DNA of 64,000 nt from assembly GCF_048403405.1 (NCBI RefSeq), contig NZ_CP183129.1; one strand, given 5' to 3'. The DNA is from Escherichia coli. Lineage in GTDB: Bacteria; Pseudomonadota; Gammaproteobacteria; Enterobacterales; Enterobacteriaceae. This document shows, one piece after another, positions 27,712-59,265 of the stretch (its first letter is position 1; each line of letters begins with the position of its first letter). Position numbers and translations under genes: made by a program. Below the pieces are notes generated by a model, which saw only the letters and a program-made list of their open reading frames with translations, was not told the origin of the DNA and did no database searches.

Positions 27712-27931
27712 TTTCACCTTTATCCCGCCCCTTAGACAGAATCTTATAATCTGAACCCACAACAGCGTTTGCACCGGAGCTGGTCCGTTGCAAAATGCTC
27801 ACCGGGAGAATTCAGGTAATCCCCCTTTCACACTTTGTACATATCACAGCCAAAGGACAGACCAGATTGAAGTGGTAAAACCGATCGTGCACACTACGCA
27901 GTCTCACAACTAACAAGAGGTTATTATCCTG

Positions 27932-29362: not shown

Positions 29363-29464
29363 TGGGCTTCATATAAATATGCTCGACATGCTATTAATAA
29401 TATCCACATAAATAAAACAACGGGCGTGTTATACGCCCGTTTCATTATTTAACACATGTAGAGA

Positions 29465-30715
29465 TTACATGTTCTTGATGATCGCATCACCAAACTCGCT
29501 ACATTTCAGCAATTTAGCGCCTTCCATCAGACGTTCGAAGTCATAGGTTACGGTCTTGGCGTTGATTGCGCCTTCCATACCTTTAACAATCAGGTCTGCG
29601 GCTTCAGTCCAGCCCATATGGCGCAGCATCATCTCAGCGGAGAGAATAATAGAGCCAGGGTTAACTTTGTCCTGACCGGCATATTTCGGCGCAGTACCGT
29701 GGGTGGCTTCAAACAGGGCGCATTCGTCACCGATGTTTGCGCCTGGGGCGATACCGATACCGCCGACCTGTGCAGCCAGAGCGTCAGAAATGTAGTCACC
29801 GTTCAGGTTCATACAGGCGATAACATCATATTCAGCCGGACGCAGCAGGATCTGTTGCAGGAATGCATCAGCAATCACATCTTTAATGACGATCTCTTTG
29901 CCGGTATTCGGGTTTTTAACTTTCAGCCACGGGCCGCCGTCGATCAGTTCACCGCCAAACTCTTCACGCGCCAGCTGGTAGCCCCAGTCTTTAAACGCGC
30001 CTTCGGTGAACTTCATGATGTTGCCTTTGTGCACCAGGGTCACAGAGTCACGATCGTTAGCAATTGCGTATTCGATCGCGGCACGGACCAGACGTTTGGT
30101 GCCTTCTTCAGAACACGGCTTAATACCGATACCGCAATGTTCCGGGAAGCGAATTTTCTTCACGCCCATCTCTTCACGCAGGAATTTAATCACTTTCTCG
30201 GCGTCGGCAGAGTCAGCTTTCCATTCGATACCCGCATAAATGTCTTCCGAGTTTTCACGGAAGATAACCATATCGGTCAGTTCAGGATGTTTAACCGGGC
30301 TTGGGGTGCCCTGATAGTAACGTACCGGACGCAGGCAGATGTAGAGATCCAGTTCCTGGCGCAGGGCAACGTTCAGAGAACGAATACCGCCACCAACCGG
30401 AGTGGTCAGAGGGCCTTTAATGGCAACGCGATATTCACGAATCAGATCAAGGGTTTCAGCAGGCAGCCAGACATCCTGACCATAAACCTGTGTGGATTTT
30501 TCACCGGTGTAAATTTCCATCCAGGAGATTTTACGCTCGCCTTTATAGGCTTTCTCGACTGCAGCGTCGACCACTTTCAGCATGGCTGGGGTTACATCTA
30601 CACCGATTCCATCACCTTCAATGTAAGGGATAATCGGATTTTCAGGAACGTTGAGTTTGCCGTTTTGCAGGGTGATCTTCTTGCCTTGTGCCGGAACAAC
30701 TACTTTACTTTCCAT
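29465..30715 (-). CDS. icd: NADP-dependent isocitrate dehydrogenase
   Basis: 416-aa [49 protein letters not shown]...; full-length. Confidence 0.95.
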
Positions 30716-36903: not shown

Positions 36904-37575
36904 ATGCGCGTACTGGTTGTTGAAGACAATGCGTTGTTACGTCACCATCTTAAAGTTCAGATTCAGGATGCTGGTCATCAGGTCGATGACGCAGAAGATG
37001 CCAAAGAAGCCGATTATTATCTCAATGAACATTTACCGGATATTGCGATTGTCGATCTCGGTTTGCCTGACGAGGACGGTCTGTCACTGATTCGCCGCTG
37101 GCGTAGCAATGATGTTTCACTGCCGATTCTGGTATTAACCGCCCGTGAAAGCTGGCAGGACAAAGTCGAAGTATTAAGTGCTGGCGCTGATGATTACGTG
37201 ACTAAACCATTTCATATTGAAGAGGTGATGGCGCGAATGCAGGCATTAATGCGGCGTAATAGCGGTCTGGCTTCACAGGTCATTTCGCTACCACCGTTTC
37301 AGGTTGATCTCTCTCGCCGTGAATTATCTATTAATGACGAAGTGATCAAACTGACCGCGTTCGAATACACCATTATGGAAACGTTGATACGCAATAATGG
37401 CAAAGTGGTGAGCAAAGATTCGTTAATGCTCCAACTCTATCCGGATGCGGAGCTGCGGGAAAGCCATACCATTGATGTACTGATGGGACGTCTGCGCAAA
37501 AAAATTCAGGCACAATATCCGCAAGAAGTGATTACCACCGTTCGCGGCCAGGGCTATCTGTTCGAATTGCGCTGA
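36904..37575 (+). CDS. phoP: Response regulator PhoP
   Basis: 223-aa [62 protein letters not shown]. Confidence 0.95.
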
Positions 37576-39035
37576 TGAAAAAATTACTGCGTCTTTTTTT
37601 CCCGCTCTCGCTGCGGGTACGTTTTCTGTTGGCAACGGCAGCGGTAGTACTGGTGCTTTCGCTTGCCTACGGAATGGTCGCGCTGATCGGTTATAGCGTC
37701 AGTTTCGATAAAACTACGTTTCGGCTGTTACGTGGCGAGAGCAATCTGTTCTATACCCTTGCGAAGTGGGAAAACAATAAGTTGCATGTCGAGTTACCCG
37801 AAAATATCGACAAGCAAAGCCCCACTATGACGCTAATTTATGATGAGAACGGGCAGCTTTTATGGGCGCAACGTGACGTGCCCTGGCTGATGAAGATGAT
37901 CCAGCCTGACTGGCTGAAATCGAATGGTTTTCATGAAATTGAAGCGGATGTTAACGATACCAGCCTCTTGCTGAGTGGAGATCATTCGATACAGCAACAG
38001 TTGCAGGAAGTGCGGGAAGATGATGACGACGCGGAGATGACCCACTCGGTGGCGGTAAACGTCTACCCGGCAACATCGCGGATGCCAAAGTTGACCATTG
38101 TGGTGGTGGATACCATTCCGGTGGAGCTAAAAAGTTCCTATATGGTCTGGAGCTGGTTTATCTATGTGCTCTCAGCCAATCTGCTGTTAGTGATCCCGCT
38201 GCTGTGGGTCGCCGCCTGGTGGAGTTTACGCCCCATCGAAGCCCTGGCAAAAGAAGTCCGCGAACTGGAAGAACATAACCGCGAATTGCTCAATCCAGCC
38301 ACAACGCGAGAACTGACCAGTCTGGTACGAAACCTGAACCGATTGTTAAAAAGTGAACGCGAACGTTACGACAAATATCGTACGACGCTCACCGACCTGA
38401 CCCATAGTCTGAAAACGCCACTGGCGGTGCTGCAAAGTACGCTGCGTTCTCTGCGTAGTGAGAAGATGAGCGTCAGTGATGCTGAACCGGTAATGCTGGA
38501 GCAAATCAGCCGCATTTCACAGCAAATTGGCTACTACCTGCATCGTGCCAGTATGCGCGGCGGGACATTGCTCAGCCGCGAGCTGCATCCGGTCGCCCCA
38601 CTGCTGGACAATCTCACCTCGGCGCTGAACAAAGTGTATCAACGCAAAGGGGTCAATATCTCTCTCGATATTTCGCCAGAGATCAGCTTTGTCGGTGAGC
38701 AGAACGATTTTGTCGAGGTGATGGGCAACGTGCTGGATAATGCCTGTAAATATTGCCTCGAGTTTGTCGAAATATCTGCAAGGCAAACAGACGAGCATCT
38801 CTATATTGTGGTCGAGGATGATGGCCCCGGTATTCCATTAAGCAAGCGAGAGGTCATTTTCGACCGTGGTCAACGGGTTGATACTTTACGCCCTGGGCAA
38901 GGTGTAGGGCTGGCGGTAGCCCGCGAAATCACCGAGCAATATGAGGGTAAAATCGTCGCCGGAGAGAGCATGCTGGGCGGTGCGCGGATGGAGGTGATTT
39001 TTGGTCGCCAGCATTCTGCGCCGAAAGATGAATAA
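37575..39035 (+). CDS. phoQ: Sensor histidine kinase PhoQ
   Basis: 486-aa ORF, two TM segments, H-box ([12 protein letters not shown]), ATPase domain; overlaps phoP stop. Confidence 0.95.
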
Positions 39036-41756: not shown

Positions 41757-42893
41757 ATGGGACAGAGTAAAAAATTGAATAAACAACCGAGTTCGCTTTC
41801 ACCGCTGGTGCAATTGGCGGGAATTCGCAAATGCTTTGATGGTAAAGAGGTCATTCCCCAGCTGGATCTGACTATCAACAATGGCGAGTTCCTCACGCTG
41901 CTTGGCCCTTCTGGCTGCGGTAAAACAACCGTTCTTCGCCTGATTGCAGGTCTGGAAACTGTTGATTCCGGACGCATCATGCTGGATAACGAGGACATCA
42001 CCCACGTTCCGGCGGAAAACCGCTATGTGAACACTGTTTTCCAAAGCTACGCACTTTTCCCCCACATGACCGTGTTCGAAAATGTGGCCTTTGGGTTACG
42101 CATGCAAAAAACCCCCGCTGCTGAAATTACGCCCCGCGTGATGGAAGCCCTGCGGATGGTGCAGCTGGAAACCTTCGCTCAACGTAAACCGCATCAGCTT
42201 TCTGGTGGTCAACAGCAACGCGTCGCCATTGCTCGCGCGGTGGTTAACAAGCCTCGTCTGTTGTTGCTGGATGAGTCGCTCTCAGCGCTGGATTACAAAC
42301 TGCGCAAACAGATGCAGAACGAGCTGAAAGCGCTACAGCGTAAGCTTGGCATTACATTCGTCTTCGTGACTCACGATCAGGAAGAAGCACTCACCATGTC
42401 GGACAGGATTGTGGTGATGCGCGATGGTCGCATTGAGCAAGACGGCACGCCGCGTGAAATCTACGAAGAGCCGAAAAACCTGTTTGTTGCTGGGTTTATT
42501 GGCGAAATCAATATGTTTAACGCCACTGTCATCGAACGTCTCGACGAGCAGCGCGTACGCGCCAACGTTGAAGGCCGCGAATGTAATATCTACGTTAACT
42601 TCGCCGTTGAACCGGGGCAAAAACTGCATGTTCTGCTGCGCCCGGAAGACTTACGTGTTGAAGAGATTAACGACGACAACCACGCTGAAGGGCTGATTGG
42701 TTACGTTCGCGAGCGTAACTACAAAGGCATGACGCTGGAGTCGGTTGTTGAACTGGAAAATGGCAAGATGGTGATGGTCAGCGAATTCTTCAATGAAGAC
42801 GACCCTGACTTTGACCACTCTCTCGACCAAAAAATGGCCATTAATTGGGTAGAAAGCTGGGAGGTCGTACTGGCTGATGAAGAACACAAGTAA
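41757..42893 (+). CDS. potA: Spermidine/putrescine ABC transporter ATPase PotA
   Basis: 378-aa ORF with Walker [10 protein letters not shown], signature LSGGQQQR, Walker B LLLLDE. Confidence 0.95.
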
Positions 42894-43740
42894 GTTCCAG
42901 AATGTAGTGATTGTCACTATTGTCGGTTGGCTTGTGTTGTTTGTCTTTCTGCCCAACCTGATGATCATTGGCACCAGCTTTTTGACCCGCGACGACGCCA
43001 GTTTCGTCAAAATGGTCTTTACGCTGGATAACTACACGCGTCTGCTCGATCCGCTCTATTTTGAAGTGCTATTGCACTCGCTGAATATGGCGCTGATCGC
43101 CACCCTCGCCTGCCTGGTGCTGGGCTTTCCTTTTGCCTGGTTTCTGGCGAAGTTGCCACACAAGGTGCGTCCGCTGCTGCTGTTTCTGCTGATTGTTCCG
43201 TTCTGGACCAACTCATTGATTCGTATCTACGGGCTGAAAATTTTCCTCAGCACCAAAGGCTATCTCAACGAGTTTTTGCTCTGGCTGGGCGTTATCGATA
43301 CACCAATTCGCATCATGTTCACACCCAGTGCGGTGATTATCGGTCTGGTTTACATTCTGCTGCCGTTTATGGTGATGCCGCTGTACTCCAGTATCGAAAA
43401 ACTGGATAAGCCGTTGCTGGAGGCGGCGCGCGATCTCGGTGCCAGCAAGTTGCAGACCTTTATCCGCATCATTATCCCACTGACGATGCCGGGGATTATT
43501 GCCGGATGCTTGTTGGTGATGCTGCCAGCGATGGGCCTGTTCTATGTGTCCGACCTGATGGGCGGTGCGAAAAACCTGCTGATCGGTAACGTCATCAAAG
43601 TACAGTTCCTCAATATTCGTGACTGGCCGTTTGGTGCAGCCACCAGCATTACGCTGACTATCGTAATGGGCCTGATGTTGCTGGTTTACTGGCGCGCTTC
43701 TCGCTTGCTGAATAAGAAGGTGAGCGAATTAGATGATTAA
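42877..43740 (+). CDS. potB: Spermidine/putrescine ABC transporter permease PotB (3' end abuts prophage DNA)
   Basis: 287-aa ORF, multi-TM permease with EAA-like loop ([23 protein letters not shown]); overlaps potA end; potC does not follow. Confidence 0.9.
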
Positions 43741-43971
43741 TCCTTTATATTCAATGCATTAAGTTTGTTTTTGAGTGGTTTTGCCGTTTAAGGTAACGGC
43801 GTTATAGATCCTATCAAAATCAATCAATTCCATTCTGGTTTTGGAGAAAGATTTTTCGAGAGCTTCGGTCTTTAACTAAAACTGATTGCGTATAATCCCA
43901 ATACCCCTCCCCGACTATCTGAATGGTCGGGGAGGCACTTCAAGCACAAAATATCATCCCTGCGCCGTTGA

Positions 43972-44238
43972 TTACTCTGCAGGTGAAGTCGGCCACTCAA
44001 TATCAGGTGCAGTTGATGTATCAACACGATTCAACAATACCCGATATTTATTCCATGCCTCCAGCAACGATCTTTCTTCCGCCGTTGCGATTTCCAGATC
44101 TACAGCATCCTGCAGTGGCGCAATATACTCACTGAATTCCTGGATGTGGAACTGTGTGGTGACGGTCTTCCAGTCATTCGGCTCCTGCTGTATCGAAGCA
44201 TACCAGGCTATTTCAATATCGCTATGCTGCGGCAGCAT
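43972..44238 (-). CDS. Tail fiber assembly protein fragment (Tfa C-terminal domain homolog, 88 aa)
   Basis: C-terminal 50 aa (...[52 protein letters not shown]) near-identical to the end of the full tfa at 45018-45602. Confidence 0.6.
43991..44134. repeat. Direct repeat copy 1 of tfa 3' end (about 85% identical to 45040-45183)
   Basis: ggccactcaatatcaggtgcagttgatgtatcaacacg... shared by both loci; also upstream shared motif ataatcccaat...gattactc. Confidence 0.85.
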
Positions 44239-44294
44239 TTAACCCCTTGTAATTCATCGCCATAATTGATTTAATTCACAAATAAAACTATAAC

Positions 44295-44963
44295 ATGGTG
44301 AAATCAATGAAAAAAAACACAGATGATGGGGCTAAAATTTACACACCACTTACCCTAAAGCTTTATGACTGGTGGGTTTTGGGAGTATCAAATCGGCTTG
44401 CATGGGGATGTCCTACAAAGGAACACCTTCTTCCACACTTTCTGGAACATGTAGGTAACAACCATCTGGATATTGGTGTTGGAACTGGGTTTTACCTTAC
44501 TCACGTACCTGAGAGTAGTCTGATATCTTTAATGGATTTGAACGAAGCTAGCCTGAACGCGGCATCTACAAGGGCTGGGGAATCAAAAATTAAACATAAA
44601 ATTAGCCATGATGTTTTTGAACCTTATCCCGCGGCGTTACATGGTCAATTTGATTCCATTTCCATGTTTTACCTTCTTCACTGCCTGCCTGGAAATATAT
44701 CTACAAAAAGCTGTGTAATACGCAATGCGGCGCAGGCCTTAACTGACGATGGAACTCTATACGGAGCCACAATTCTTGGCGATGGAGTTGTGCACAATAG
44801 CTTCGGTCAAAAACTGATGCGCATTTACAATCAGAAAGGCATCTTTTCAAACACAAAAGATTCCGAAGAAGGCTTAACACATATACTCTCAGAGCATTTC
44901 GAGAATGTTAAAACCAAGGTTCAAGGTACTGTAGTAATGTTTTCCGCTTCAGGGAAAAAATAG
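44295..44963 (+). CDS. Class I SAM-dependent methyltransferase (prophage moron)
   Basis: 222-aa ORF with Rossmann motif I (HLDIGVGTGFYL) and acidic motif II (LISLMDLNEASL); markedly AT-rich relative to flanks; opposite strand to phage structural genes; alternative start at 44307 (MKKNTDDG). Confidence 0.7.
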   Translation: MVKSMKKNTDDGAKIYTPLTLKLYDWWVLGVSNRLAWGCPTKEHLLPHFLEHVGNNHLDIGVGTGFYLTHVPESSLISLMDLNEASLNAASTRAGESKIKHKISHDVFEPYPAALHGQFDSISMFYLLHCLPGNISTKSCVIRNAAQALTDDGTLYGATILGDGVVHNSFGQKLMRIYNQKGIFSNTKDSEEGLTHILSEHFENVKTKVQGTVVMFSASGKK

Positions 44964-45017: not shown

Positions 45018-45602
45018 TTACTCCCTGACAGGGTTCGTAGGCCACTCAATATCAGGTGCAGTTGATGTATCAACACGGTTCAGCAACACCCGATACTTTT
45101 TCCAGGCTTCCAGCAATGAGGTTTCTTCCTCCGTTGCAATTTCCAGATCTGCAGCATCCTGAAGCGGCGCAATATGCTCACTGGCTACCTGCATCAGGTT
45201 GTTTTTTGTTTCTTCCGCCTCCCGGATCCGGAACAGTTTTTCTGCTTCCGTATCCTTCACCCAGGCTGTGCCGTTCCACTTCTGAAACTCCCCTTCCGGC
45301 GATAACCAGGTAACATTTTCCGGTAACGGACCGAGTTCAGAAATAAATAACTCGTCCCCTGACGCTACGTCATAAACCGTTTTCCCCCGATGGTCTTCAA
45401 CGAGATGCCACGATGCCTCATCACTGTTGAAAACAGCCACAAAGCCAGCAGGAATATCTGGTGGTGCAATATCGGTACTGTTTGCTGGCAGACCTGTATG
45501 AGGCGGAATATATGCGTCACCTTCACCAATAAATTCATTAGTTCCGGCCAGCAGATTATAAATTTTTATGGTCCGTGCTTGTTCACTCATTCTGAATGCC
45601 AT
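45018..45602 (-). CDS. tfa: Tail fiber assembly protein Tfa
   Basis: 194-aa [82 protein letters not shown]... recognised as lambda Tfa-like. Confidence 0.9.
45040..45183. repeat. Direct repeat copy 2 of tfa 3' end
   Basis: See copy 1; the two copies bracket the methyltransferase gene. Confidence 0.85.
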
Positions 45603-48600
45603 TATGCAAGCCTCACAATATAGTTAAATGCGATGTTTTTGACGGTGTTTTCCGCGTTACCCGCAGCGTTAACGGTGATGGTGTGTCCATGTGAACCAAT
45701 CGCAACGGAGTGCGTATGCGCACCAATACCTACAGTATGTGCATGTGCGCCAGAACTTGCTGCAGTACCAGACAGCGAGTGGGTATGAGCACCTGCTGAC
45801 TGTGTCTGAATACGTTGATAATACGATCTATAGGAAGAAGTCTCCGGGCTTACTTGATACTGTGAATTCTGGACATAAGTGAACCCACCGCCATCATAAA
45901 ATGCTAACGCAGAACCGCCGCCTCCTGGCCAACGAATACCATTACCATGAGTATGAACACCGGCAGACCCCGTAGAGCCACTCAGACTGTGCGTATGCGC
46001 CCCGGTGTTATTCGTGGATTTAGTGCCGTAATCAAACGACGATGTGGTTTTCGTCCCCAAATCCGTACTGGATGCGCTGGCGCTGTGGGTGTGCGATTTT
46101 ATGCCGTCCTGTTCCTGAGACAATACGGCCCGGCCACTGGCGGGTTTGCCCTTGATTGTCCAGCCGCGCATATCTGGAATAACACCTGAAGGATAGGCAA
46201 TAGCCAGTTTCGGATATGCTGCCTTATCAAACGTCTGCCCCTGCATGATCGCATAACCTGCAGGTGGTGTATCTGATGGCCACGGCAGCGGAACACCTGG
46301 CGGAAACGCTTCAATATTTGCCGAGCCGTCAAATTTTACGCCGTTAATTGTCCTTGCAGTTTGCAATTTGGTTGCTGTGCTTGCATTACCCGATAAAGAT
46401 CCAGTGATACCACCACTCGCGTTTAATTTAGTTGCAATTGTAACATTGCCAGTATGGTTACTAATTATAAACGGCCTTAAGCTATTGTGCGTACCAAGAC
46501 TGTTACCCGAATCTGTCAACATAAAATATGTGTTTGATCCATCATTTCGGATAAAGAATCCATAGTTGCCATAGGCAATACGCAGACCATTTGCTGACCT
46601 TGAAATAACCTCACCAGCAGCAGTTAAACCACCTGAAAGAGTCCCTCCAGTTAATGCCAATGCCCCAATATTTGAAGGGGTCAATGTGATATTTGCACTA
46701 CCATCAAATGACACACCGTTAATCGTTCTGGCTGCCTGAAGTTTCGTGGCGGTCGCAGCATTACCTGTAGTGTTTTGATTACCGGTAGCGTTGACTCCAG
46801 GCAAGTTGATATCTGCCGATCCATCAAATGCCACGCCCCCAATCTTACGTGCTGTCTTGATCTTGGTCGCAGTATCTGCGTTTCCGGTCAAATTACCAGT
46901 AACACTACCACCAACTTTTAGTCCATTACCGATGGACACCAACCCTGATCTTAAGTTTATAGAGAATGGTCTTAATGAACCGATGTCTCCATTTTCCCCC
47001 TCCCCTTCATTAGTCGGAATAAGATGAAGATGATCTTCGGAACGCCTAAAAATAAGGCCAAAGGCTTGGTTGAATATTCGAAGAGCATTTATCGTGCTGA
47101 TTTTTAACTGCCCTCCCATTGTGTCGCCAGTTTTTTGAACTGAACTATCTTTAACAGTTTTAACTGCCTTTGGCGTTGCCGCCAGCTTTTCACTGGTGCT
47201 GTTTGTTGCACTGCTGAGCTGTACTATCCCCTTTTTCGTCGTGCTCGCATCCTCCAGCGCCACGGCGGATGCAATATCCTCTGCCCGTTTTGCTGCTGTC
47301 TCGGCGCGCGTTGCCGCGGATTCAGCAGCAACTTTGCTCTGAGATGCAGCCGTCGCACTGCCTGCCGCCTCTGATGCTTTCGTTGTTGCTGTCGTGGCAC
47401 TACCTTTCGCTGCTGACGCTTGTCTGGTCGCCTCATCTTTTGAAGCAGACGCAGATGATGCCGATGACGCCGCTGAACTGGCTGACGATGCGGCTGCCGC
47501 CTTAGAGGAAGCAGCATTGTCTGCTGAAGTCTTTGCATTTGTTTCAGAGGTTTTTGCTGCAGAAGCAGACCTCGCTGCTGCAGTGGCTTGCTCAGTGGCT
47601 TTGCCAGCCTTCGTTGTGGCTGTTGAAGCGGATGATGCGGCGCTTTCTGCCGATTTTCCGGCGGCGGTGGCACTGGCTGAGGCCTGCCCGGCACTTGTTG
47701 ACGCGGCACTGGCAGATAATGCAGCCGCTGTTTTTGAACCTGCCGCAGCTGAGGCGCTCTGTCCCGCTGCTGTTTCAGAAGACTTAGCGTTCGTCTCGGA
47801 CGTTTTTGCCGCCTTCGCGGAATTTCCTGCCGCCGTTGCCGAGGAAGCTGCACTACTGGCACTTGATGATGCATTCGTTTCTGAAGATTTCGCTGCCTCT
47901 TTTGAGGCCGCCGCACCCCGTGCCGAGGTGGCAGCTTCTGACGCCTTCATGGTCGCTGTGGATGCAGAAGTGGCTGCCGATTTTTGTGATGCTGCGGCAT
48001 TCGTTTCTGACGTTTTCGCGGCACTGGCGCTGGTAGCTGCCGCGCTTTTTGATGACTCTGCAGCAGCAGCACTTTTTGCTGCTTCACGGGCCTTTGTCGA
48101 TGCCGTTCCTGCGCTGGAAGACGCTGACTGAGCCGACGACGCGGCCTGTCCGGCTGACGTGCTGGCGGCACGTGCTGAGGCTGCAGCATCGGTTGCATGA
48201 GTTGCCGCCTCGCTGGCTGATGCACTGGCATCGCTGGCTGATTTTTTCGCGGCTGCCGTATTCTGTGCAACCGCGGAGGCGTTACGTGACACCTCTTCCA
48301 CCATCTGCTCAAAGCGGCGCAGTGCCTCCGGTCGGACATCATCCTCCGTCATGGCACCGAGAAAATCATTCAGCGTACCTGGTCTGGAACCTTCATAGAC
48401 GGTAATGGTCCCGGCATGTGAAGGCGGAAAACCTTCAACCAGCAGGGTGACGCTGTACTGGCCATGCTCAACATCCATGCTGTAACGTCCGGCTTCATCC
48501 GGATTTTCAGAGGCCACCGTGTTCACCACCACCGTGCTGCTGGTTCGTCTGGCCTTCAGCACAATGGTGCAGTTCTGTACTGGTTTTCCTGTGCCATCTT

Positions 48601-48628
48601 TAAGCACGCCAGAAATTTTTACTGTCAT
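45602..48628 (-). CDS. stf: Side tail fiber protein Stf
   Basis: 1008-aa ORF; lambda-Stf-like N-terminus ([30 protein letters not shown]), long Ala/Ser/Thr-rich low-complexity shaft, C-terminal receptor-binding region. Confidence 0.85.
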
Positions 48629-48640
48629 ACTTTTCCACCA

Positions 48641-48672
48641 ATAAAAAAAGCCCGCAGCAGTGACGCCACGGG
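48641..48672 (-). terminator. Intrinsic terminator downstream of lom
   Basis: On minus strand: agcccgtggcgtcactgctgcgggct hairpin followed by ttttttatt. Confidence 0.5.
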
Positions 48673-48779
48673 CTTCAGGACAGTGTAACTTTACGTTTCC
48701 TCAAACGCAGTTCACCCCATAAGGTGGATGAACCTGCGTATCATAACAATATTTACAGAAGATAAATCGGCGTCTGTTG

Positions 48780-49379
48780 TCAGAAACGGTATCCGATACC
48801 AACAATAAATGCATCCGTTCGCCAGTCGCCACTACCGGAACCTTCATAAGCAAGGTCAATGGTTACGGATTCGGTCGGGTTAAACTGCACGCCAGCCCCC
48901 CACGCCAGAGACGTGTTGCTGTGGCGACCGTCATCACTTCCGGTCAGCACATCGTGCGTTTTCCCCTTGTTGTCAGTTACGCGGAGATAATCCCCGGAGA
49001 AAGTCGACACACGGCTGTAAGCCACACCCACCATCGCATACGCGCTGAACCATTCATTCACGCGTACAGACGGCCCCGCCATCACGCTGAACCAGCGGTT
49101 ACGCACGGAATCTTCATGCCAGCGGGTATCGCTGTAGTGCGTTTTTTGCTCATCCTCAGCATTGGCATAACTGAAGGACGTAATCAGCCCCAGCGCGTCC
49201 GTAAACTCATAACGGTATTTCACGTTAATCCCGTTCAGATTATCGCTGCCGGGAGCGTTCGTACGGGCATGAAGATACCCCGCGCTCAGTGTGGACTGAT
49301 GTTCAGACGCCCATGCAGGCGCACCGGATACGGACAGACAGATGGCTGCGGACAAAATGGCTGCACAAACTTTACGCAT
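48780..49379 (-). CDS. lom: Lom-family outer-membrane beta-barrel protein
   Basis: 199-aa ORF with signal peptide MRKVCAAILSAAICLSVSGAPAWA and C-terminal ...IGYRF; Ail/Lom family. Confidence 0.85.
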   Translation of the reverse strand: MRKVCAAILSAAICLSVSGAPAWASEHQSTLSAGYLHARTNAPGSDNLNGINVKYRYEFTDALGLITSFSYANAEDEQKTHYSDTRWHEDSVRNRWFSVMAGPSVRVNEWFSAYAMVGVAYSRVSTFSGDYLRVTDNKGKTHDVLTGSDDGRHSNTSLAWGAGVQFNPTESVTIDLAYEGSGSGDWRTDAFIVGIGYRF

Positions 49380-49446
49380 AATTACCTCTCGCTTTTCTGC
49401 AATAAAAAAGGCGCCATTTCTGGCGCCCGTATATGGGTTATAAAAT

Positions 49447-52400
49447 TCAGCTGATACTGATGCCTGCGGTGGCTTTCTTCATCACCACAACCAGCAAATC
49501 GCTGATACTTGCTGTGGGATACCAGTTATTCACCAGCCATGCTGACACCGAAAACTCCAGCGTCATGTGGCCGCGACCAGCTGGCATATCAATAACACCA
49601 CTGTAAATCAGCGTATTATCCAGCGCGGTACGGTTATAAATTTCAGCACCGTTTTTCCGTACTATCAGGCGGCATGACGAATAAGTATCGCTGTTCTCCC
49701 GCTCATGTCTGGCACCGCTGAAAGCCACCGCCGGAATAACAATCTGCCGGTTAAACGGCTGATCGTCATAAACCCTGACGGTAATGGTTCCTGATGGCCA
49801 ACGCTCCGGTGCACGGGAGTCACGGGGGAAAGCCTTACCCACTGTTTTAACGAGATCGCCTTCAATCTGGTTTGCAGACAGTTTCCCTCTGATGACACAG
49901 TTCTCGTTAATGGTGACATTATTGAGCGTGCCGGTATTCGCCGTGATGGCTCCACTGATATCCGCATTGCGGGCTGTCAGCCTGCCATCCGGCGTCAGGG
50001 AAAACGTAGGAGGATTGCCGGATGACGTGATGCTCACCGCAAACAGTCGCTTCAGGAACACGTCGTTCATGAACAGCTGATTCCCCTGCGCCACAAACAG
50101 CGGCGTGGTGTTGCCATTCTCCGGGGTAATCATCGCGATACGGTCCGCCTGCAGCAGAATACTGCTCAGCGTCTGACCATCAACATCCTCAATCCCCGCA
50201 CCAATCCCGGCCACATAGGGAATACCGTTTTTTGTTTTCTGCACCTTCAGCATATACATGGCATTCAGCTCATTGCGCGTGTCTGACTGAACCCGCTGGA
50301 TTTGCTGTATGGTCACGGCCTGGTCACCCAGCTTTTTATCCGTGGTCGAGGTAATTTCACTCCCTTTTTTATCCACGTACTGGCGGACCTGTGCTATCTG
50401 TCGGGCGTTTTCTGACTGCCCCTGGCTGACAGTCTGTGAGATTTCACTGCTCACCCGGTCCACTTTCTGGCTCACCTGCGCGATGGCCAGTGTCTGGTCC
50501 TCATTCTTTTTCGCAACCAGCTGCGTGAGGCTGTTTTCCGCCTTCCCGATTTTCCGGGTCACTTCTGCGATATCCGTGTCCATCCGCTGACGGATGTCTT
50601 CTTCCAGTTGCGTGACCTCCGTACGCAGCGCTGAAGCATCAATGCGCTCTTTCAGTGCCTGGCCCAGAAGCGTCTCATCTATCAGCCCCCGGAAAATTTC
50701 CAGATACCCTTCACCATCATTGCTGGGCTGCCCGCTGGCTTCCACAAAAGCAGATTTTCCCACCAGGTTGACGCTTCGCACGTAAAACCAGAAATCCGTC
50801 CCCGGCTTAATCCGGCTCCCCTGGACAGTCCACTGACTGCCGGTCCCCAGATAACGGGCAGATTTTTCCACCTGTGCCGTGTTCGTGATGCGTTTTTCTG
50901 AGAACCAGAATTCAAACTGTACCGTCGGGTCATACACCGCAAGACGCGGGACCGCCGTTATCTGAAAATACCCCGGCGTCAGCTCAATGGTGGCGGGTTT
51001 TGCAGGCGCGTTAATCCGGAAGGTGGTGGTCGCAGGTTCGCCCTGCTGGCCGTAGCTGTTAATGGCCCGCACCGTCAGGGTGTATTCCCCCAGTGGCAGG
51101 CCGCTGAAACGGTGCTCCGTGTCTGCGGTGATGGCGGTGGTCACCAGTCTGGCATCCGTTCCCTTACCACTGGTCAGGCGCAGACTGAAGCGCACACCCT
51201 TCACCACCCGCGGCGTGTCCCATTTCGCCTGCGCCAGATACTGGCCGTCAGCTGCGCTCACCTCCACCGTCAGGTGCTGCACTGCCGGTGGGATGACGCT
51301 GTTCAGGGAACCTGACTGCGGCTCAAAGCGGGCACCGTTATCCACGATGGCTTCTTTTTCCGGTACGTGCTGCACCGCCGTGATGGCAAAGGTGCCGTCC
51401 GTGTTTTCCCGGACGGAGACACAGCGGAACAGGCGACGGCGCAGTGACGGCAGGGAGAGTCCCCACACCCCGTATGTCTCCACACCATCAGGCAGGGTAC
51501 TGACCTGTATCCGGTCCGGCGCGGGGTGTTCGGTGATGTCCACACTCACTGGCTTACCGCTGCCGTTAATCAGGTTCACCGTGGCGGCACCGGTCTCCGG
51601 AAGTGTCACTTCACGGTCCAGCGTCAGGGTGCGGGTGGCAGCATCAATGGACAGGACACGTCCGCCGGTCAGGGTCCCGGCATAGTCGTTATCACAGATT
51701 TCAATGATGTCACCGGGTGTGTGCCGCAGCCCCTGAGACCCGAGCGTGAAATCCACCGTCTGCGTTTCCAGCAGTTCGGTCTTTATCACCCACAGTCCGG
51801 CACGGTGGGCCTGACCGCGGCTGGTACAGCCGAACGCGTCCATCTTCAGCAGGTTGCGTCCGTAGCGCAGTATGGCTTCCGGGTCTTCCACCAGTTCCGT
51901 GGAGGTCTGCCAGCCGTTCTGCGGGTCGGTGTAATTCACCTCCACCGCCGTGTGCCGGTCCTTCAGGGCACTGAAGCTGTAGCGGAATCCCACGCCGTTA
52001 TCATCCACCACCACATCGCTGTTGGTGTACGGCCACACCACATCCGACGGGCGGTCCTGAACGAACGTCAGCGTCTGACCGTTCCATACCGGCATACAGC
52101 GCATCGCAGAGCAGAAATCACTGAGAACGTCCCACGCCTTACGCTGTTGTGCCAGGTACGCATTAAAGGTCATCCGCGGCTCGGTCCCCCCGAAACCATC
52201 CGGGACCGTCTGGTCGCAGTACTGCCCGATGGCATACAGCGCCCACTTGTCCACATCCGCCGCCCCCAGACGTTTTCCCATGCCGTAGCGCGGGTGAGTC
52301 AGCATGTCCCACAGGCACCAGGCCGGGTTGTTGCTGTATGCCGGTTTCAGACTGCCGTCCCAGATACCACTGTACGTGCGTTTTTCCGGGTCATAGTTTG

Positions 52401-53139
52401 ACGGCACCTGGATGATACGACCGCGGATATGGTAGTTCACCGTCATCTGCTGGCCGCCGAACTGCTCCGCATCCACCTGCAGCCCCACAATGGCCGTGTT
52501 CGGGTAGCACTGTTTCACATCGATGATTTCGGTGTATGACGACCACAGCGTCTTATTCTGCAGCTGGTCCGTGGTGCTGTCCGCCGTCTCCCTGACCATC
52601 CGGATGTTAAAGGGCCGGGGAGGCAGATTATCCAGAATCACCGAGGCCAGGAACTGTGAGGTGGTCTTGCCGTTAATGGTGACGTCCTTTTCTGTCACCC
52701 AGTTACCGTTACGCTGTAACTGAATCAGCAGGCGGACGGTTGCCGGGTTACGGTCACCCTTTGAGGTGGTCTCCACCAGTGACTGCACCCCGAAGGTAAC
52801 CCGCAGGCGGTCAATGTTCGCGGACGTAATGGTGCGCGTCACCGGTTTTGCCTTCGTCACTTCCACGCCCAGTCCGGTTTCAGCTCCGGAGGACTCAAAG
52901 CCTTCCGGTGGTGTCTGCTCCTGCTCCCCGGCACGCCAGACCGCGGTCACACCGTGTATCACGGGATTACCGTCCGTGTCCGTCAGCGGGGTTTTGTTCA
53001 CCAGAATACTCTGCAGTCCCTTCACCGGACCTTCTATCGGTCCCTCACCAATCGCATCAATCACACTCATCATCTGCGTGGATTTGAGATTATCCTTCGC
53101 CTCACGAGGCGTGTGTGCCTTACCGCCACCTTTTCCCAT
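49447..53139 (-). CDS. J: Tail tip host-specificity protein J
   Basis: 1230-aa [55 protein letters not shown]..., lambda J-like. Confidence 0.9.
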
Positions 53140-53241
53140 ACAGCCTTCCCCTGAATAAATTAACCGCCACTTGCCATTCCGTACAGAAGTCGGATATCCT
53201 TCGCCCGAAAAGCATGAAACACATTTCTGCCATGCTAAAGA

Positions 53242-53276
53242 GAAACCCCGGTATCAGCAGATACCGGGGTTTTCTT
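53242..53276 (+). terminator. Strong hairpin plus U-tract in the I–J gap
   Basis: aaaccccggtatc agca gataccggggttt (10-13 bp perfect stem) followed by tctttc. Confidence 0.45.
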
Positions 53277-53344
53277 TCATGCCCACCGATAATCCTGTTG
53301 GTTAAAACCGGTAATGGCATAAAAATTCTGAATATCTTCACATT

Positions 53345-53477
53345 TTCACACACTGACTGTGGCGCGTATAATTTCTCTGCGTTAATTTTTTTGTCGTGAT
53401 ATAAGAATAATTCCTTACACTTAATCTTCGTAACTCTCCCGCAGTTCCTGTCCGCGATCACTGCGGGATTTTTTTAT
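53345..53477 (+). ncRNA. Candidate small RNA unit in I–J intergenic insertion (promoter 53345-53372, terminator 53438-53477), antisense to tail operon
   Basis: TTCACA-16 nt-TATAAT with AT-rich upstream; no ATG-initiated ORF downstream; cccgcag...ctgcggg hairpin followed by atttttttatt about 65-100 nt after predicted start. Confidence 0.3.
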
Positions 53478-53482
53478 TCTTT

Positions 53483-54163
53483 TTACCCCTGCCGCCCGAT
53501 AACCACGACCTTTCCGCCCCCGCCTTCATCACGGGTGCTGATGTCCTGGGATATACGGCGGGAGCCAACCAGCATTTCCCCGTAAGGCACCGGCATCGGG
53601 TTCCCCTGGGCAATCATGTTATCCAGCGAGGAAAAGTACGTGTTCTGTCTGCCGTTATCCGTTGCGCGGTAATCCGGTGTTTTTGCCTTCGGGGCCAGCA
53701 TCTGGGCCACTCCGCCCAGTATCATGCTGGCACCCAGTGAAAACAGCATCGTGGTGGCAGAAAAACCACCGGCACTCAGGGCTGTACCCCATAACGCCAT
53801 CGAGCCTCCGGCCGTGAAGAAAGAGCCCACGATGGCTGCCGCCCCCAGCACAATCTGCAGTCCACCCTTTCCGGCCCCGGCCAGTCGCGGCACAATGTGG
53901 ATGACCGTTCCCTCACCCAGCTGTTCGTGAAGACGGGCGTACACCGCCTCCGGTGCCGTGTCATCACCGGCAATACGTATCTGGTACCAGCCTTCGTTCA
54001 TCTGACGGCGAAAGCCCGGCATCTGCATCGACAGGGCGCGAATGGCTTCCGCTGCCGTGTTCACATACAGGCTGAGGCGGCGGCCAAATCGTTGTAAATC
54101 CCCGTGAAGGCAGATGCGTGCCAGTGGCGGTGACGCCAGACAGAATGCGTTCGTCGTTGCCAT
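53483..54163 (-). CDS. I: Tail assembly protein I
   Basis: 226-aa ORF, lambda I-like, overlaps K. Confidence 0.8.
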   Translation of the reverse strand: MATTNAFCLASPPLARICLHGDLQRFGRRLSLYVNTAAEAIRALSMQMPGFRRQMNEGWYQIRIAGDDTAPEAVYARLHEQLGEGTVIHIVPRLAGAGKGGLQIVLGAAAIVGSFFTAGGSMALWGTALSAGGFSATTMLFSLGASMILGGVAQMLAPKAKTPDYRATDNGRQNTYFSSLDNMIAQGNPMPVPYGEMLVGSRRISQDISTRDEGGGGKVVVIGRQG

Positions 54164-54806
54164 TTTTCGGAATACCTCTCCCGTTTACTCAGTTGTTCAG
54201 GCAGATGGTGAAGCAGCTCACCGTTACCGCAGTAAATGGCGGCATGGTTCGGTACCGAAGCACCAAAGCAGCACAGCAGAATATCGCCCGCCTGTGCAGA
54301 GGACAGGGGCACCCGGTAAAAGCCGGTGACCGCCATATTGTCCAGGTAAAGGTTCTGGCCGTTGCGCCACCAGTCATCCTCGCGATGAAAATCCGGCATT
54401 TCAGTCCCCGCCAGATGATAAGCATCCCGGAACAGCGTGTAACAGTCCGTCACCCCGTGCTCAAAGCGCCGTCCCGTCAGATGTGGCACACAGCGGAATT
54501 TGTGAATGTCACCCCGGCAGACCAGCCACCAGGGCAGTGCGCTTTTTATCTGCAGCCGCCGGTCAGCCTCGCTCAGCCAGGGCAGCCCACCGGGATGACT
54601 GTGGACCAGTGCCACAATCTCCCCCTGCATCTCTGCCCGCAGCCAGTCTTCCGGTGCGATACGAAAATACGCCTCCGGCTCCGCGGAAATATTCACACAA
54701 GGGATATACCACTCCCCCTCCGGCGTGCTTATCACGAAGCCGCACGACTCCGCAGGCGCACACCGCCGGGCATGTGCCAGAATCGCTGATTCAGTCTGTG
54801 TCATAA
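54061..54806 (-). CDS. K: Tail assembly protein K (NlpC/P60–JAB-like)
   Basis: From MTQTESAILAHARRCAPAESCGFVISTPEGEWYIPCVNISAEPEAYF... with HSHP motif; ORF in track extends upstream to 55065. Confidence 0.8.
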
Positions 54807-54814
54807 ACCGGGAT

Positions 54815-55513
54815 TTACTGCGAAAGTTTATTAATGGAAAGGAAACCGCCAAAATTGCCGACATTCCTGCGCAGTTCACACCCGCGCATGCACTTGCTGC
54901 ATCTGTCCTTACGGATATCCGTGGTGGGTTTATCGAACTCATCCGCCACAGCCCCGCCCGTGTAACCACACTCATCAGAGCGGTAGGTCCACATACAGGT
55001 GTTCGCCAGCATGATACGACCGGGAAACAGCGCCCCGTCCGTCTCGGTCGGTGTGGCCAGCACAAACGAGGCCGTCATGGCTGTCAGCTGCGACATCTGC
55101 TCCACCACCCAGCGGTCACTCAGCTCCTGCTCCGGGTCCGCCGCCGGATTGCCCGCAACGAAATTCACCGCATCCAGAAAACGGGCATACACCCGGCGGC
55201 GGACCACCGTGGCCCCCACCAGACTCTGCAGGTCTTCCGCCATCCCGGTGACCAGACCGAACAGATTGGACACCGTCAGCGACGGTCTGGCACTGCTGCC
55301 CTTCCCGCTCATCTCAAAACCGCTGCCGTCAATCGGGTATGCCTGATATTGCCGCCCCTGCCAGGTGACCGGCTCCCCTTTTTCATTCAGCTCATTACAG
55401 AAAAAATACCGCTCACCGCCCTGTACCGTCAGGTCGATTTCCCAGAGTACCACCCGCGGTGACTGCTCTGACTTAACCGACTCGTTCAGACTTTCTTCGC
55501 GAATATCCTGCAT
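54815..55513 (-). CDS. L: Minor tail protein L
   Basis: 232-aa ORF MQDIREESLNESVKSEQSPRVVLWEIDLT..., Cys cluster near C-terminus. Confidence 0.85.
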   Translation of the reverse strand: MQDIREESLNESVKSEQSPRVVLWEIDLTVQGGERYFFCNELNEKGEPVTWQGRQYQAYPIDGSGFEMSGKGSSARPSLTVSNLFGLVTGMAEDLQSLVGATVVRRRVYARFLDAVNFVAGNPAADPEQELSDRWVVEQMSQLTAMTASFVLATPTETDGALFPGRIMLANTCMWTYRSDECGYTGGAVADEFDKPTTDIRKDRCSKCMRGCELRRNVGNFGGFLSINKLSQ

Positions 55514-55842
55514 CAGTTCACCACCTGCTTAAACTCCGCGCTGAACTCAACGCGCAACATCCCGACCCGCGCAGACCACCCGGCACAGGTCACCTTTATC
55601 TGCCGGTATGCATAGGGTGGCTTCCACAAAAATGCCTTCCAGCCACCGTGCTCTGCCAGGAACGCTTCCAGATGCCGGGCCTCCTCCCGGGTCACGGAAA
55701 GCGTCACCCTGTATGTTTTCAGGTCAGCATTCAGCCCTGCCGCCATACGCTGTGAGTACCCGTCACCAAAACGCACTTCACGCACCGATGGCTGCGAGTT
55801 CACCTCCATATCCGGCTTCACTTTCCAGCGAAATGTTTTCAT
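55513..55842 (-). CDS. M: Minor tail protein M
   Basis: 109-aa ORF MKTFRWKVKPDMEVNSQPSVREVRFGDGYSQR... Confidence 0.85.
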   Translation of the reverse strand: MKTFRWKVKPDMEVNSQPSVREVRFGDGYSQRMAAGLNADLKTYRVTLSVTREEARHLEAFLAEHGGWKAFLWKPPYAYRQIKVTCAGWSARVGMLRVEFSAEFKQVVN

Positions 55843-58400
55843 CGCCCGCTCCCCGATAACAGACCGCCATCACGCAACTGCAGCCGGAGCTCATCCTGCG
55901 CACCTTTACGGGCCATCTCATACACCGCTTTCATCAGCTGCGGCCCGGCCTGTCCGTTGATACCGTCGTTCTGAATCACCACGTGATTGTTCTGATTAAA
56001 ATTAATGCCTTCGGCCCGCCGCATCTGCGCCGGACTTCCGGCAGCACCCACATACCCCCCTTCCGCATAGCCCCGCATCAGGCGGTACAGGTTCCCGACA
56101 CCAATCCGGCTGGTTGCCTCCTTCGTGAAGACAAACTCCCCGCGGTGGACAATCCCCGCTGGCTCATATTTGCCGCCGGTTCCCGTAAATCCTCCGGTCG
56201 CAAAATGGAATTTCGCCGCAGCTGCCTGAATGGCTGTACCGCCTGACGCGGATGCGCCACCACCAACAGCCCCGCCAATAGCGCTGCCGATACTCCCGAC
56301 AATCCCCACCATTGCCTGCTTAAGCAGAATTTCTGTCATCATGGACAGCACGGAGCGGGTGAAGCTGCGCCAGTTCTGCTCACTGCCGGTCAGCATCGCC
56401 GCCATATTCTGTGCAATACCATCAAAGGTCTGCGTGGCAGCACTTTTTACCTGCGACATACTGTCCGTGGCACTCTCTTCCCACTCACTCCAGCCGGACC
56501 TGAGGCCTGCCATCCAGTTCCCGCGAAGCAGGTCTTCAGCCGCCCAGGTCTTTTTCTGCTCTGACATGACGTTATTCAGCGCCAGCGGATTATCGCCATA
56601 CTGTTCCTTCAGGCGCTGTTCCGTGGCTTCCCGTTCTGCCTGCCGGTCAGTCAGCCCCCGGCTTTTCGCATCAATGGCGGCCCGTTTTGCCCGTTGCTGC
56701 TGTGCGAATTTATCCGCCTGCTGCGCCAGCGCGTTCAGGCGCTCCTGATACGTAACCTTGTCGCCAAGTGCAGCCAGCTGGCGTTTGTACTCCAGCGTCT
56801 CATCTTTATGCGCCAGCAGGGATTTCTCCTGTGCAGACAGCTGGCGACGTTGCGCCGCCTCCTCCAGTACCGCGAACTGACTCTCCGCCTTCCACAAATC
56901 CCGGCGCTGCTGGCTGATTTTCTCATTCGCTCCGGCATGCTTCTCCAGCGTCCGGAGTTCTGCCTGAAGCGTCAGCAGGGCAGCATGAGCACTGTCTTCC
57001 TGACGATCGCCCGCAGACACCTTCACGCCGGACTGTTTCGGCTTTTTCAGCGTCGCTTCATAATCCTTTTTCGCCGCCGCCATCAGCGTGTTGTAATCCG
57101 CCTGCAGGATTTTCCCGTCTTTCAGTGCCTTGTTCAGTTCTTCCTGACGGGCGGTATATTTCTCCAGCGGCGTCTGCAGCCGTTCGTAAGCCTTCTGCGC
57201 CTCTTCGGTATATTTCAGCCGTGACGCTTCGGTATCGCTCTGCTGCTGCGCATTTTTGTCCTGTTGAGTCTGCTGCTCAGCCTTCTTTCGGGCGGCTTCA
57301 AGCGCAAGACGGGCCTTTTCACGATCATCCCAGTAACGCGCCCGCGCTTCATCGTTAACAAAATAATCATCCTTGCGCAGATTCCAGATGTCGTCTGCTT
57401 TCTTAAACGCAGCCTCTGCCTTAATCAGCATCTCCTGCGCGGTATCAGGACGACCAATATCCAGCACCGCATCCCACATGGATTTGAATGCCCGCGCTGT
57501 CCTGTCTGCCCAGGTCTCCAGCGTGCCCATGTTCTCTTTCAGGCGGCGGGTCTGGTCATCAAACCCTTTCGTTGCGGCCTCGTTCGCCGCCTGCAATGCC
57601 CCGGTTTCATCGCCGGAACGCTGCAACTGAGCAACATACGCAATCTGCTCCGCCGTCACGTTATGGAACTGCTTCGCCATCGCAATCAGCCCCGACGTCG
57701 GGTCAGTGGTCAGTTTTCCGAAAGCCTCTGCAACCTTGTCCACCTCCACACCGGATGCAGAAGCAAAACGCGCGACACTCTGGTTGATGGCATCAAACTG
57801 TTCACCACCACGCACACCGGCATTCACCATGGCTGCCAGTGACTCACTCGCCTGGTTAAACGTCAGCCCTGCGGCCTGTCCGGCTCTGGAGAGCGTCAGC
57901 ATGCGATCGGCAGTCAGTCCGGACTGATTACCGGAAAGAACCAGGGTTTTATTAAACGCTGAAAGCGTGGAATCTCCCTGGTACCAGGCGTACACCAGCG
58001 CACCTGTCGCCACCGCCAGCGAGGTGACCCCGACCATCGGCAGGGTGATCGCACCGGCAAGCCCCCTGAACATGGGGATCATCCCGCCGAAGGAGTCCTT
58101 CACCTGACCGCCCTGTTGCAGCAGGATCAGCCAGGGATTCTGACCACCGGCAAGCTGCGTGGCGATATCCGTAAACTGTGCGGGCAGGGTTCGCATGGCC
58201 GCTTTATACTGCCCGACGGAAATCCCTGCTTTTTGTGCAGCCAGCGCCTGGTGGCTCAGCCCCTGCTCAACGACAGTTGCGGTTTTTCTGGCGTCAGTAT
58301 CCAGACCTGAAAAATGACGCCTTACCCGGCTCATCTGCTCATCGAAACGGACCGCATCCAGACTCAGGTCAATAACAAGATCACCAACCGGCTGGGACAT
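55839..58400 (-). CDS. H: Tail tape-measure protein H
   Basis: 853-aa ORF, near-identical over long stretches to lambda H as I recall it (MSQPVGDLVIDLSLDAVRFDEQMSRVRRHFSG...). Confidence 0.9.
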   Translation of the reverse strand: MSQPVGDLVIDLSLDAVRFDEQMSRVRRHFSGLDTDARKTATVVEQGLSHQALAAQKAGISVGQYKAAMRTLPAQFTDIATQLAGGQNPWLILLQQGGQVKDSFGGMIPMFRGLAGAITLPMVGVTSLAVATGALVYAWYQGDSTLSAFNKTLVLSGNQSGLTADRMLTLSRAGQAAGLTFNQASESLAAMVNAGVRGGEQFDAINQSVARFASASGVEVDKVAEAFGKLTTDPTSGLIAMAKQFHNVTAEQIAYVAQLQRSGDETGALQAANEAATKGFDDQTRRLKENMGTLETWADRTARAFKSMWDAVLDIGRPDTAQEMLIKAEAAFKKADDIWNLRKDDYFVNDEARARYWDDREKARLALEAARKKAEQQTQQDKNAQQQSDTEASRLKYTEEAQKAYERLQTPLEKYTARQEELNKALKDGKILQADYNTLMAAAKKDYEATLKKPKQSGVKVSAGDRQEDSAHAALLTLQAELRTLEKHAGANEKISQQRRDLWKAESQFAVLEEAAQRRQLSAQEKSLLAHKDETLEYKRQLAALGDKVTYQERLNALAQQADKFAQQQRAKRAAIDAKSRGLTDRQAEREATEQRLKEQYGDNPLALNNVMSEQKKTWAAEDLLRGNWMAGLRSGWSEWEESATDSMSQVKSAATQTFDGIAQNMAAMLTGSEQNWRSFTRSVLSMMTEILLKQAMVGIVGSIGSAIGGAVGGGASASGGTAIQAAAAKFHFATGGFTGTGGKYEPAGIVHRGEFVFTKEATSRIGVGNLYRLMRGYAEGGYVGAAGSPAQMRRAEGINFNQNNHVVIQNDGINGQAGPQLMKAVYEMARKGAQDELRLQLRDGGLLSGSGR

Positions 58401-59252: not shown

Positions 59253-59265
59253 GTATTACCTCCGT

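Follow-up and report, generated by a model that had tools for sequence, protein, structure and literature searches.

The 64,000-nt stretch of Escherichia coli DNA analyzed here (the window; all coordinates are positions in it, 5′ to 3′ of one strand) passes from the host gene potB directly into prophage DNA, which continues to base 64000 with its late genes on the − strand. The segment 43709–43860 is very probably the attachment (att) junction distal to the integrase gene, the equivalent of lambda attR, of a lambdoid prophage of ∼48 kb that entered the last codons of potB by Campbell-type insertion. Both junctions of the prophage, the direct repeat, the empty host site, a contiguous phage site (attP), the domains of the integrase, and the position of the crossover were seen directly. 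An earlier note on this DNA had proposed that a phage integrated at the potB 3′ end or the potC 5′ end. This reading of site-specific integration is supported, with three corrections, which concern the position of the core, the origin of the final potB codons, and the second of two hairpins.

Both Prophage Junctions Share a 14-bp Core

The core was defined as the longest common substring of the two prophage junctions. The features at the potB side are as follows.

41757–42893, + strand: potA, host gene (from the list of open reading frames)
42877–43740, + strand: potB, open reading frame including the phage-supplied end; the host part is codons 1–282 (to 43722)
43709–43722, + strand: att core, the 14-bp block TGAATAAGAAGGTG, single copy in the window, repeated at the other prophage end
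43709–43715, + strand: inferred overlap (strand-exchange) region TGAATAA, 7 bp, placed by a polymorphism in lysogen 05-3629
43723–43740, + strand: phage-supplied potB end AGC GAA TTA GAT GAT TAA, encoding SELDD*, by comparison with K-12 and the reconstructed host site (attB)

Identity between host and phage stops at 43722. None of potC, potD, xis, or int was found in the window by blastn or tblastn, which confirms that potB is followed by prophage DNA and not by potC. A second copy of TGAATAAGAAGGTG stands 8 bp upstream of the potC ATG in loci L001 and L002, and the same block is the junction point in contiguous attP contigs. L002 is the prophage of strain MS 69-1, the nearest complete genome, with 17 mismatches in the 21,000 bases of window 43001–64000. 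Sixteen of the 17 are clustered within ∼290 bp (49295–49582) at the boundary of lom and J, in what looks like a small recombination patch. The two cores of the MS 69-1 prophage are 48,454 bp apart. The prophage continues through lysis, Q, replication, and immunity genes, an exonuclease, xis, and int, then gives way to potC and potD, and it carries iraM/iraL-type cargo. From the annotation of this 99.9% identical prophage, int, xis, and potC are placed ∼28 kb past the window end. The prophage of strain 4621 has the same ends, with a mosaic interior that is partly different.

The 14-bp repeat at both ends, and the order xis-int followed by potC in MS 69-1, bear out insertion at the potB 3′/potC 5′ end; the other prophage end is thereby located, in near-identical genomes, with int, xis, and the direct-repeat core at potC. 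Finding potC just beyond the window, without an int/att pair, had been taken by the earlier note to imply a rearrangement; in MS 69-1, potC lies 48.4 kb from potB, after xis and int.

The empty site in K-12 reads ...AATAAGAAGGTGGAACTCGAATGATCGG, in codons CTG AAT AAG AAG GTG GAA CTC GAA TGA, and the potC ATG overlaps the potB stop (ATGA). An attB assembled from the core and its flanks in potB and potC is uninterrupted in 3,800 of 5,426 complete genomes of E. coli, in some at 100% identity. The potC-side junction is predicted as TGAATAAGAAGGTG-GAACTCGAATG (potC) and the attP junction as CCTTATGAATAAGAAGGTGAGCGAA. The predicted attP junction, joining the int-side arm, the core, and the arm of the window, is contiguous in three IMG/VR contigs (aligned over 430–600 nt), with a variant in a fourth. 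In one contig (L005) the order is tail fiber, tail-fiber-assembly gene (tfa), methyltransferase, att, int, and exonuclease, the circular permutation that the Campbell model predicts.

The records of vB_EcoS-640R1 and 813R8 were considered as further examples of attP and rejected, since they match the int-side half only and are attL junctions; 640R1 continues into potC and potD. The 640R1 record (L003, ON470612.1, labeled “partial genome”) spans int, the att core, and then host potC, potD, ymfA, and ycfZ. Its host DNA is either a flank kept in prophage extraction or packaged host DNA.

The site is heavily used. The window-type potB junction, counted at ≥80% coverage of the 1-kb query 43300–44300, is present in 905 of the 5,426 genomes, and the junction int-arm-core-potC in 1,397. 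In 210 further genomes a two-gene cassette directly follows int, with potC next to the cassette in the one example inspected. The cassette encodes a DUF2335 protein and a small hypothetical protein on the opposite strand, between the int stop and the int-side att arm (L090 3670–4700, strain BCE049), and its insertion leaves ∼98 bp of that arm intact. Together these 1,397 and 210 junctions cover nearly all of the ∼1,625 genomes with an interrupted attB, leaving ∼18 unexplained, and the site is occupied in ∼1,600 of the genomes (∼30%).

The occupants differ (Stx1a, Stx2a, and non-Stx phages), and the breakpoint is the same to the base in hundreds of genomes. The Stx2a prophage of strain 05-3629 has the same potB junction, with the same int and xis at the potC end, and the Stx1a phage record LC744180 uses the potB junction of the window. 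Cargo adjoining the att arm varies: a methyltransferase in the window, YkgJ in 05-3629, and stx elsewhere.

Strand Exchange Maps to Seven Base Pairs

A natural polymorphism in strain 05-3629 locates the crossover within the core. The core of this lysogen reads TGAATAAGAAGG on the potB side and TGAATAAAAAGG on the potC side, the two differing at position 8, which is G (phage type) at potB and A (host type) at potC. The attB reconstructed with the A allele is intact at 100% identity in many prophage-free genomes and is a native attB allele. A phage-type base at potB together with a host-type base at potC places the exchange to the left of position 8, within TGAATAA; on the left, the limit is the T, as the flanks disagree at the base that precedes it. 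The host DNA of potB is thus certain only up to the crossover region, 43709–43715. In attP, TGAATAA lies between the inverted sequences CCTTA and GAAGG, conserved in all arm variants seen. These may be core-type sites for the integrase (Int) around the 7-bp overlap, as their inverted arrangement would suggest.

The earlier note had placed the att site in 43741–43970. The core lies ∼20 bp upstream of that interval, inside potB; the part that stands is the phage arm at ∼43723–43860, which overlaps it.

Two details of the int-side junction were noted. In the IMG/VR contig L041, shortly before the contig ends, the core reads CCTTATGAACAA, with a T to C change inside the inferred 7-bp overlap; the change may reflect variation in the overlap of the host or the phage, or an error of sequencing. 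On the phage side, the core is preceded by an A, so that an ATG arises there (attP; L002 49160–49190) and with it a potC-side reading frame of 8 codons, ATG AAT AAG AAG GTG GAA CTC GAA TGA, whose stop overlaps the potC ATG as that of native potB does. Because no Shine-Dalgarno sequence precedes it (CTCCACCTT), this small frame is probably untranslated.

The Phage Arm and Candidate Int Sites

Beyond the core, the arm in the window contains the following features.

∼43723–43860, + strand: phage att arm distal to int, counterpart of the lambda P arm, delimited by the alignability of arm types A and B
∼43725–43739: conserved island CGAAnTAGATGATTA (alignment of types A and B)
43747–43754: conserved island ATATTCAA (same alignment)
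43816–43823: conserved island AAAATCAA (same alignment)
43839–43848: conserved island TTTTGGAGAA (same alignment)
43839–43850, + strand: candidate Int arm-type site TTTTGGAGAAAG, the sole exact copy in the window
43783–43800: hairpin 1, GCCGTT-taaggt-AACGGC, 6-bp stem, inside the att arm
43906–43935: hairpin 2, with 13-nt arms at 43906–43918 and 43923–43935, beyond the conserved arm
43859–44022: 164-bp block shared with cargo DNA of phage cdtI, holding hairpin 2 and the start of a tfa fragment

Two types of arm were compared. Type A is found in the window, in Stx1a_EH2115, and in others; type B is found in 05-3629 (Stx2a) and several IMG/VR contigs. The two are collinear for ∼150–160 nt from the core start, with a single 1-nt gap near the end, and then diverge completely; the point at which the alignment stops sets the outer limit of the arm near 43860. 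All 80 loci recovered in the IMG/VR search encode a 99%–100% identical Int, and divergence of the arms was found only on the distal arm (A versus B).

Arm type B keeps the TTTTGGAGAAAG site of the window, equally far from the core. On the int side the motif is present in three tandem copies, GTTTTGGGGAAAC, GTTTTGGAGAGA, and TTTTGGAGAAAG. Counted from the core start, repeats of the TTTTGGAGA type stand at −80, −67, −56, and +130, all in one orientation, and in L089 (50 kb) the two att arms hold every copy of the 9-mer TTTTGGAGA. Because Int has a lambda arm-binding domain and is similar to lambda Int, the repeats are read as candidate arm-type Int sites. The ∼98 bp left by the cassette in 210 genomes gives a bound on the int-side arm.

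A copy of the arm was also seen away from potB. Lambdoid phages that carry cdt (L093, from 577; L096, ∼5150–5353; and IMG/VR contigs) hold the whole potB-type distal arm and the right part of the core between tfa and cdtABC, reading ...CCGAT/AAGAAGGTGAGCGAATTAGATGATTAA... at the join. It looks like a relic att junction and suggests that the cdt genes were acquired by aberrant excision from a secondary site.

Integrase and Excisionase

The integrase matches Pfam Arm-DNA-bind_1 (PF09003, E 3.8e-21) and Phage_integrase (PF00589, E 1.5e-18). It is 35% identical to lambda Int over residues 27–372, almost the full length (E 5e-61), and its best PDB matches are lambda Int structures, 1Z1B and 5J0N. 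The catalytic residues are in register with those of lambda Int: R (VTGQR), H-x-x-R (HEQRSLS), H (LLGHK), and Y (DRYND). The int gene ends 144 bp from the core in L002. The excisionase (Xis) is encoded by an 89-aa open reading frame overlapping the start of int; RefSeq annotates it as “excisionase,” and its match to PF07825 barely passes (E 7e-5, 23.2 bits against a cutoff of 23).

In the mechanism that we propose, the phage encodes an excisionase and a tyrosine integrase of the lambda type, whose N-terminal domain is of the arm-binding kind. Its attP would span ∼250 bp: an int-side arm of at most ∼98 bp with three tandem TTTTGGAGA-type repeats, the core CCTTA-TGAATAA-GAAGG, and a distal arm of ∼140 bp with one further TTTTGGAGAAAG repeat. 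Strands would be exchanged within the 7-bp TGAATAA that is common to potB (...CTG AAT AAG AAG GTG...). After integration, potB keeps 282 native codons and ends in the phage codons SELDD*, while potC keeps its ATG and its Shine-Dalgarno sequence AAGGTG, which lies inside the core. The whole prophage then stands between potC and potAB with the potA promoter, and potC follows int after 166 bp, oriented alike. Binding of the repeats by Int, the half-sites of core type, and any role of the palindrome formed by hairpin 1 are our inferences.

The Phage Supplies the End of potB

Codons 1–282 of potB (...RLLNKKV) match the host; relative to K-12, PotB differs only by Y74F and the exchange of its C terminus. 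The phage-supplied SELDD* replaces the native ELE* (GAA CTC GAA TGA), five codons for three. Other arm variants end potB in NELDD* or ATEIDD*. Whether the last codons are native or phage-supplied had been called undecidable from the window; comparison with K-12 and attB settles it, NKKV being native and SELDD* coming from the phage. The MS 69-1 lysogen and K-12 have identical PotC proteins.

That the phage-supplied end is a diverged copy of the host end found no support. The resemblance (GAAnTnGA-TGAT) is no better than that of shuffled sequences, which scored at least as well in 738 of 2,000 cases with type A and in 428 of 2,000 with type B.

The Two Hairpins Differ in Origin

Both hairpins had been proposed as parts of the att arm. 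Hairpin 1 does lie in the arm; hairpin 2 falls outside it, in the block shared with cdtI. Hairpin 1 folds with −9.3 kcal/mol on the + strand (z −2.1) and −8.8 kcal/mol on the − strand (z −4.5). In nearly the same alignment column, arm type B has a palindrome of unrelated sequence with a 14-bp stem and −22 kcal/mol. A position shared by the palindromes of two arm types suggests a function, though from two examples only. Stem variants of hairpin 1 (L004/L097; L094) keep a wobble pair on opposite strands, so that the strand is not identified.

Hairpin 2 is more stable (−24.2 kcal/mol, z −5.7). The block in which it lies, 43859–44022, is 96.4% identical to cdtI 23726–23889, between cdtA and cif and far from the int of cdtI. 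By this match, hairpin 2 is part of mobile cargo and tfa-end DNA and not of the potB att site.

Rho-independent terminators were considered for both hairpins and rejected, as no run of U follows either stem. The tails on the + strand read GTTATAGATC and CACTTCAAGC, and a terminator scan of 43500–44400 on both strands returned none; a promoter scan of the potB junction likewise picked out no site at the hairpins.

Alternative Explanations

With only one prophage end in the window, the junction might be the product of a chromosomal rearrangement (an inversion, recombination between prophages, or an illegitimate insertion) and not of an integrase; some of the ∼18 genomes, among ∼1,625 occupied ones, that fall outside the two types of int-potC junction may indeed be rearranged. 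Such an origin for the potB/prophage junction is scarcely credible, however, given a breakpoint that recurs to the base in hundreds of genomes with different phages, a 14-bp direct repeat flanking the prophage, whose far end carries int and xis, an empty site that reconstructs exactly, and a contiguous attP. Highly improbable as well is an att site proper in the intergenic 43741–43970, with both hairpins functional in the arm and native codons at the end of potB. The arm does occupy 43723–∼43860 and hold hairpin 1, at whose position the diverged arm likewise has a palindrome. Yet host/phage identity ends within potB at 43722, the crossover maps to 43709–43715, and native potB ends in ELE* with the potC ATG over its stop; moreover, arm types A and B share nothing past ∼43860, and hairpin 2 sits in cargo-type DNA of the cdtI kind.

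A different question is whether hairpin 1 is a functional RNA element, either a 3′ stabilizer or terminator of the truncated potAB transcript, which would also protect the prophage from incoming transcription, or a retroregulator of int resembling sib/tI. The sib retroregulator of lambda is a precedent for an element linked to int only in the unintegrated phage. Palindromes in the same place in types A (6 bp) and B (14 bp), which otherwise share short islands, would fit such an element, as would its position on the strand that is read by potAB transcription in the lysogen and by int transcription in attP. Against it stand the lack of a U-run on either strand and of any terminator call, and natural stem variants that do not point to a strand; two arm types give no real test of covariation, and the palindrome could equally bind a protein or be neutral. 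An RNA element is therefore possible but unlikely.

Several points weigh against site-specific integration as set out above, or against its details. The window does not reach the integrase end, and the far junction was deduced by way of near-identical genomes instead of the source genome itself. Among free-phage records, INPHARED has none with both arms contiguous, and the attP-type contigs could come from tandem lysogens instead of excised circles. Binding of Int to the TTTTGGAGA repeats and to CCTTA/GAAGG is a prediction, and the MS 69-1 prophage has, besides the copies of TTTTGGAGA in its att arms, a single one in the immunity region (L002 42324), within a helix-turn-helix repressor-like gene (42130–42537); this copy may be due to chance. 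The window-type attP (arm type A) has no exact match to the integration host factor (IHF) consensus WATCAANNNNTTR: the alignment of the arms, read by eye, shows the full consensus in type B (AATCAAATAGTTA) and a single deviating base at the corresponding place in type A (AATCAATCAATTC).

Consequences for potCD

In the lysogen, potC has no translational overlap with potB and lies ∼48 kb from the potA promoter, and int and xis are oriented as potCD. Simple scans of the 166 bp between int and potC found no promoter-like or terminator-like site, which makes read-through from the prophage the obvious candidate source of potCD transcripts. That the insertion alters potCD expression, as the earlier note had suggested, is plausible from this arrangement. 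A stronger version, in which potCD would be transcribed only by int-xis read-through, tying spermidine uptake to the state of the prophage, with the arm palindrome as a dedicated RNA element, is decidedly doubtful. Phages of this family split potABCD in ∼30% of complete E. coli genomes, and if that version were true, it is in those strains that the uptake of spermidine would hang on prophage state. A literature search on potCD expression or spermidine uptake in potB lysogens found nothing relevant.

Other Features of the Window

The remaining host and prophage genes considered are listed below.

37575–39035: phoQ, host gene, followed in order by roxA, pepT (− strand), potA, and potB
43972–44238, − strand: C-terminal fragment of tfa (Pfam Caudo_TAP, positions 75–131 only)
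44295–44963, + strand: class I S-adenosylmethionine (SAM)-dependent methyltransferase, a cargo gene (moron) between two tfa copies (Pfam Methyltransf_12/23/25/11; RefSeq annotation)
45018–45602, − strand: tfa, full gene
45602–48628, − strand: tail fiber, 1,008 aa
48780–49379, − strand: lom
49447–53139, − strand: J
45018–64000, − strand: prophage late region (tfa, tail fiber, lom, J, tail and head genes), running past the window end

RefSeq annotates the tfa fragment at 43972–44238 as a partial pseudogene in L001 and L002. A 158-nt direct repeat of 87% identity links this fragment (43988–44145) with the 3′ end of the full tfa (45037–45194). The repeats flank the + strand methyltransferase gene, and a promoter-like site lies at 44239–44266. 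The arrangement has the look of a moron whose insertion duplicated the end of tfa. Within the tfa coding sequence, 45061–45259 (− strand) is a full-length match to the Rfam family IS009 (RF02111, 225 bits).

Two observations concern host DNA. The icd gene (29465–30715, − strand) is directly followed by the ycgX/iraM/bluR/ymgK region (window 27600–30715); because this region adjoins icd, the attachment site of e14 and phage 21 at the icd 3′ end appears to be unoccupied in this strain. The Rfam small RNA C0299 (RF00119) has a full-length match of 112 bits at 7281–7359 (− strand).

Comparison with Known Systems

The potB/potC locus is a recognized prophage site (PMC9997748, PMC4632033, PMC3573123, PMC4045071, PMC8065619), and insertion of a prophage there has already been described, so that the finding itself is correct but ordinary. 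Phi-CFT073-potB, the “potB genomic island,” carries iraL (PMC4632033, PMC3573123, PMC4045071); PP_potB is found in O157:H7 (PMC9997748); and “potC” is an insertion site of Stx phages in Shiga toxin-producing E. coli negative for the locus of enterocyte effacement (PMC8065619). These prophages share the locus and the lambdoid kind of the window prophage, CFT073 being compared by its published description, and the iraM/iraL-type cargo reported in the Phi-CFT073-potB island is present in the MS 69-1 prophage. The core, the crossover, and the anatomy of the arms at the potB/potC site were not found spelled out in the searchable literature.

For annotation, the present analysis fixes the prophage boundary to the base (43709–43715), shows that the potB frame ends in phage codons, and tells the att arm apart from the adjoining cargo DNA. 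The site is one that lambdoid phages of E. coli, including Stx1a and Stx2a phages, use rather heavily for insertion; a precise description of its core and arms is thus useful for prophage typing and for the design of junction polymerase chain reactions.

The closest parallel is lambda itself, whose annotated Int-binding sites were the basis for comparing the layout of attP. The two systems have in common a tyrosine recombinase with an arm-binding N-domain, a lambda-type Xis, and an int gene that adjoins attP and is transcribed toward it. In both, attP is ∼250 bp, with tandem arm-type repeats on the int side, an arm site or sites 100–150 bp out on the other arm, and a 7-bp overlap inside an identity block of ∼15 bp, the arm sites and the overlap of the potB phage being putative. 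They differ in the target, which is inside a coding sequence for the potB phage and in the gal-bio intergenic region for lambda, and in the sequences of the core (TGAATAA in the potB phage) and of the candidate arm-type sites (TTTTGGAGA). The potB phage also has only one clear candidate site on the distal arm and a palindrome within the arm, both known from sequence alone.

Exchange of a gene end has its own precedents. Phages e14 and 21 integrate at the end of the icd gene and supply a substitute end. Insertion of rac at ttcA alters the end of the TtcA protein (PMC4632033). As in these cases, the prophage at potB enters an open reading frame that is left open, the phage arm giving the last codons and the stop. 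At potB, in contrast, the substitute is short (5 codons for 3) and is not demonstrably a copy of the host end, and the insertion cuts an operon, so that the downstream genes lose their promoter.

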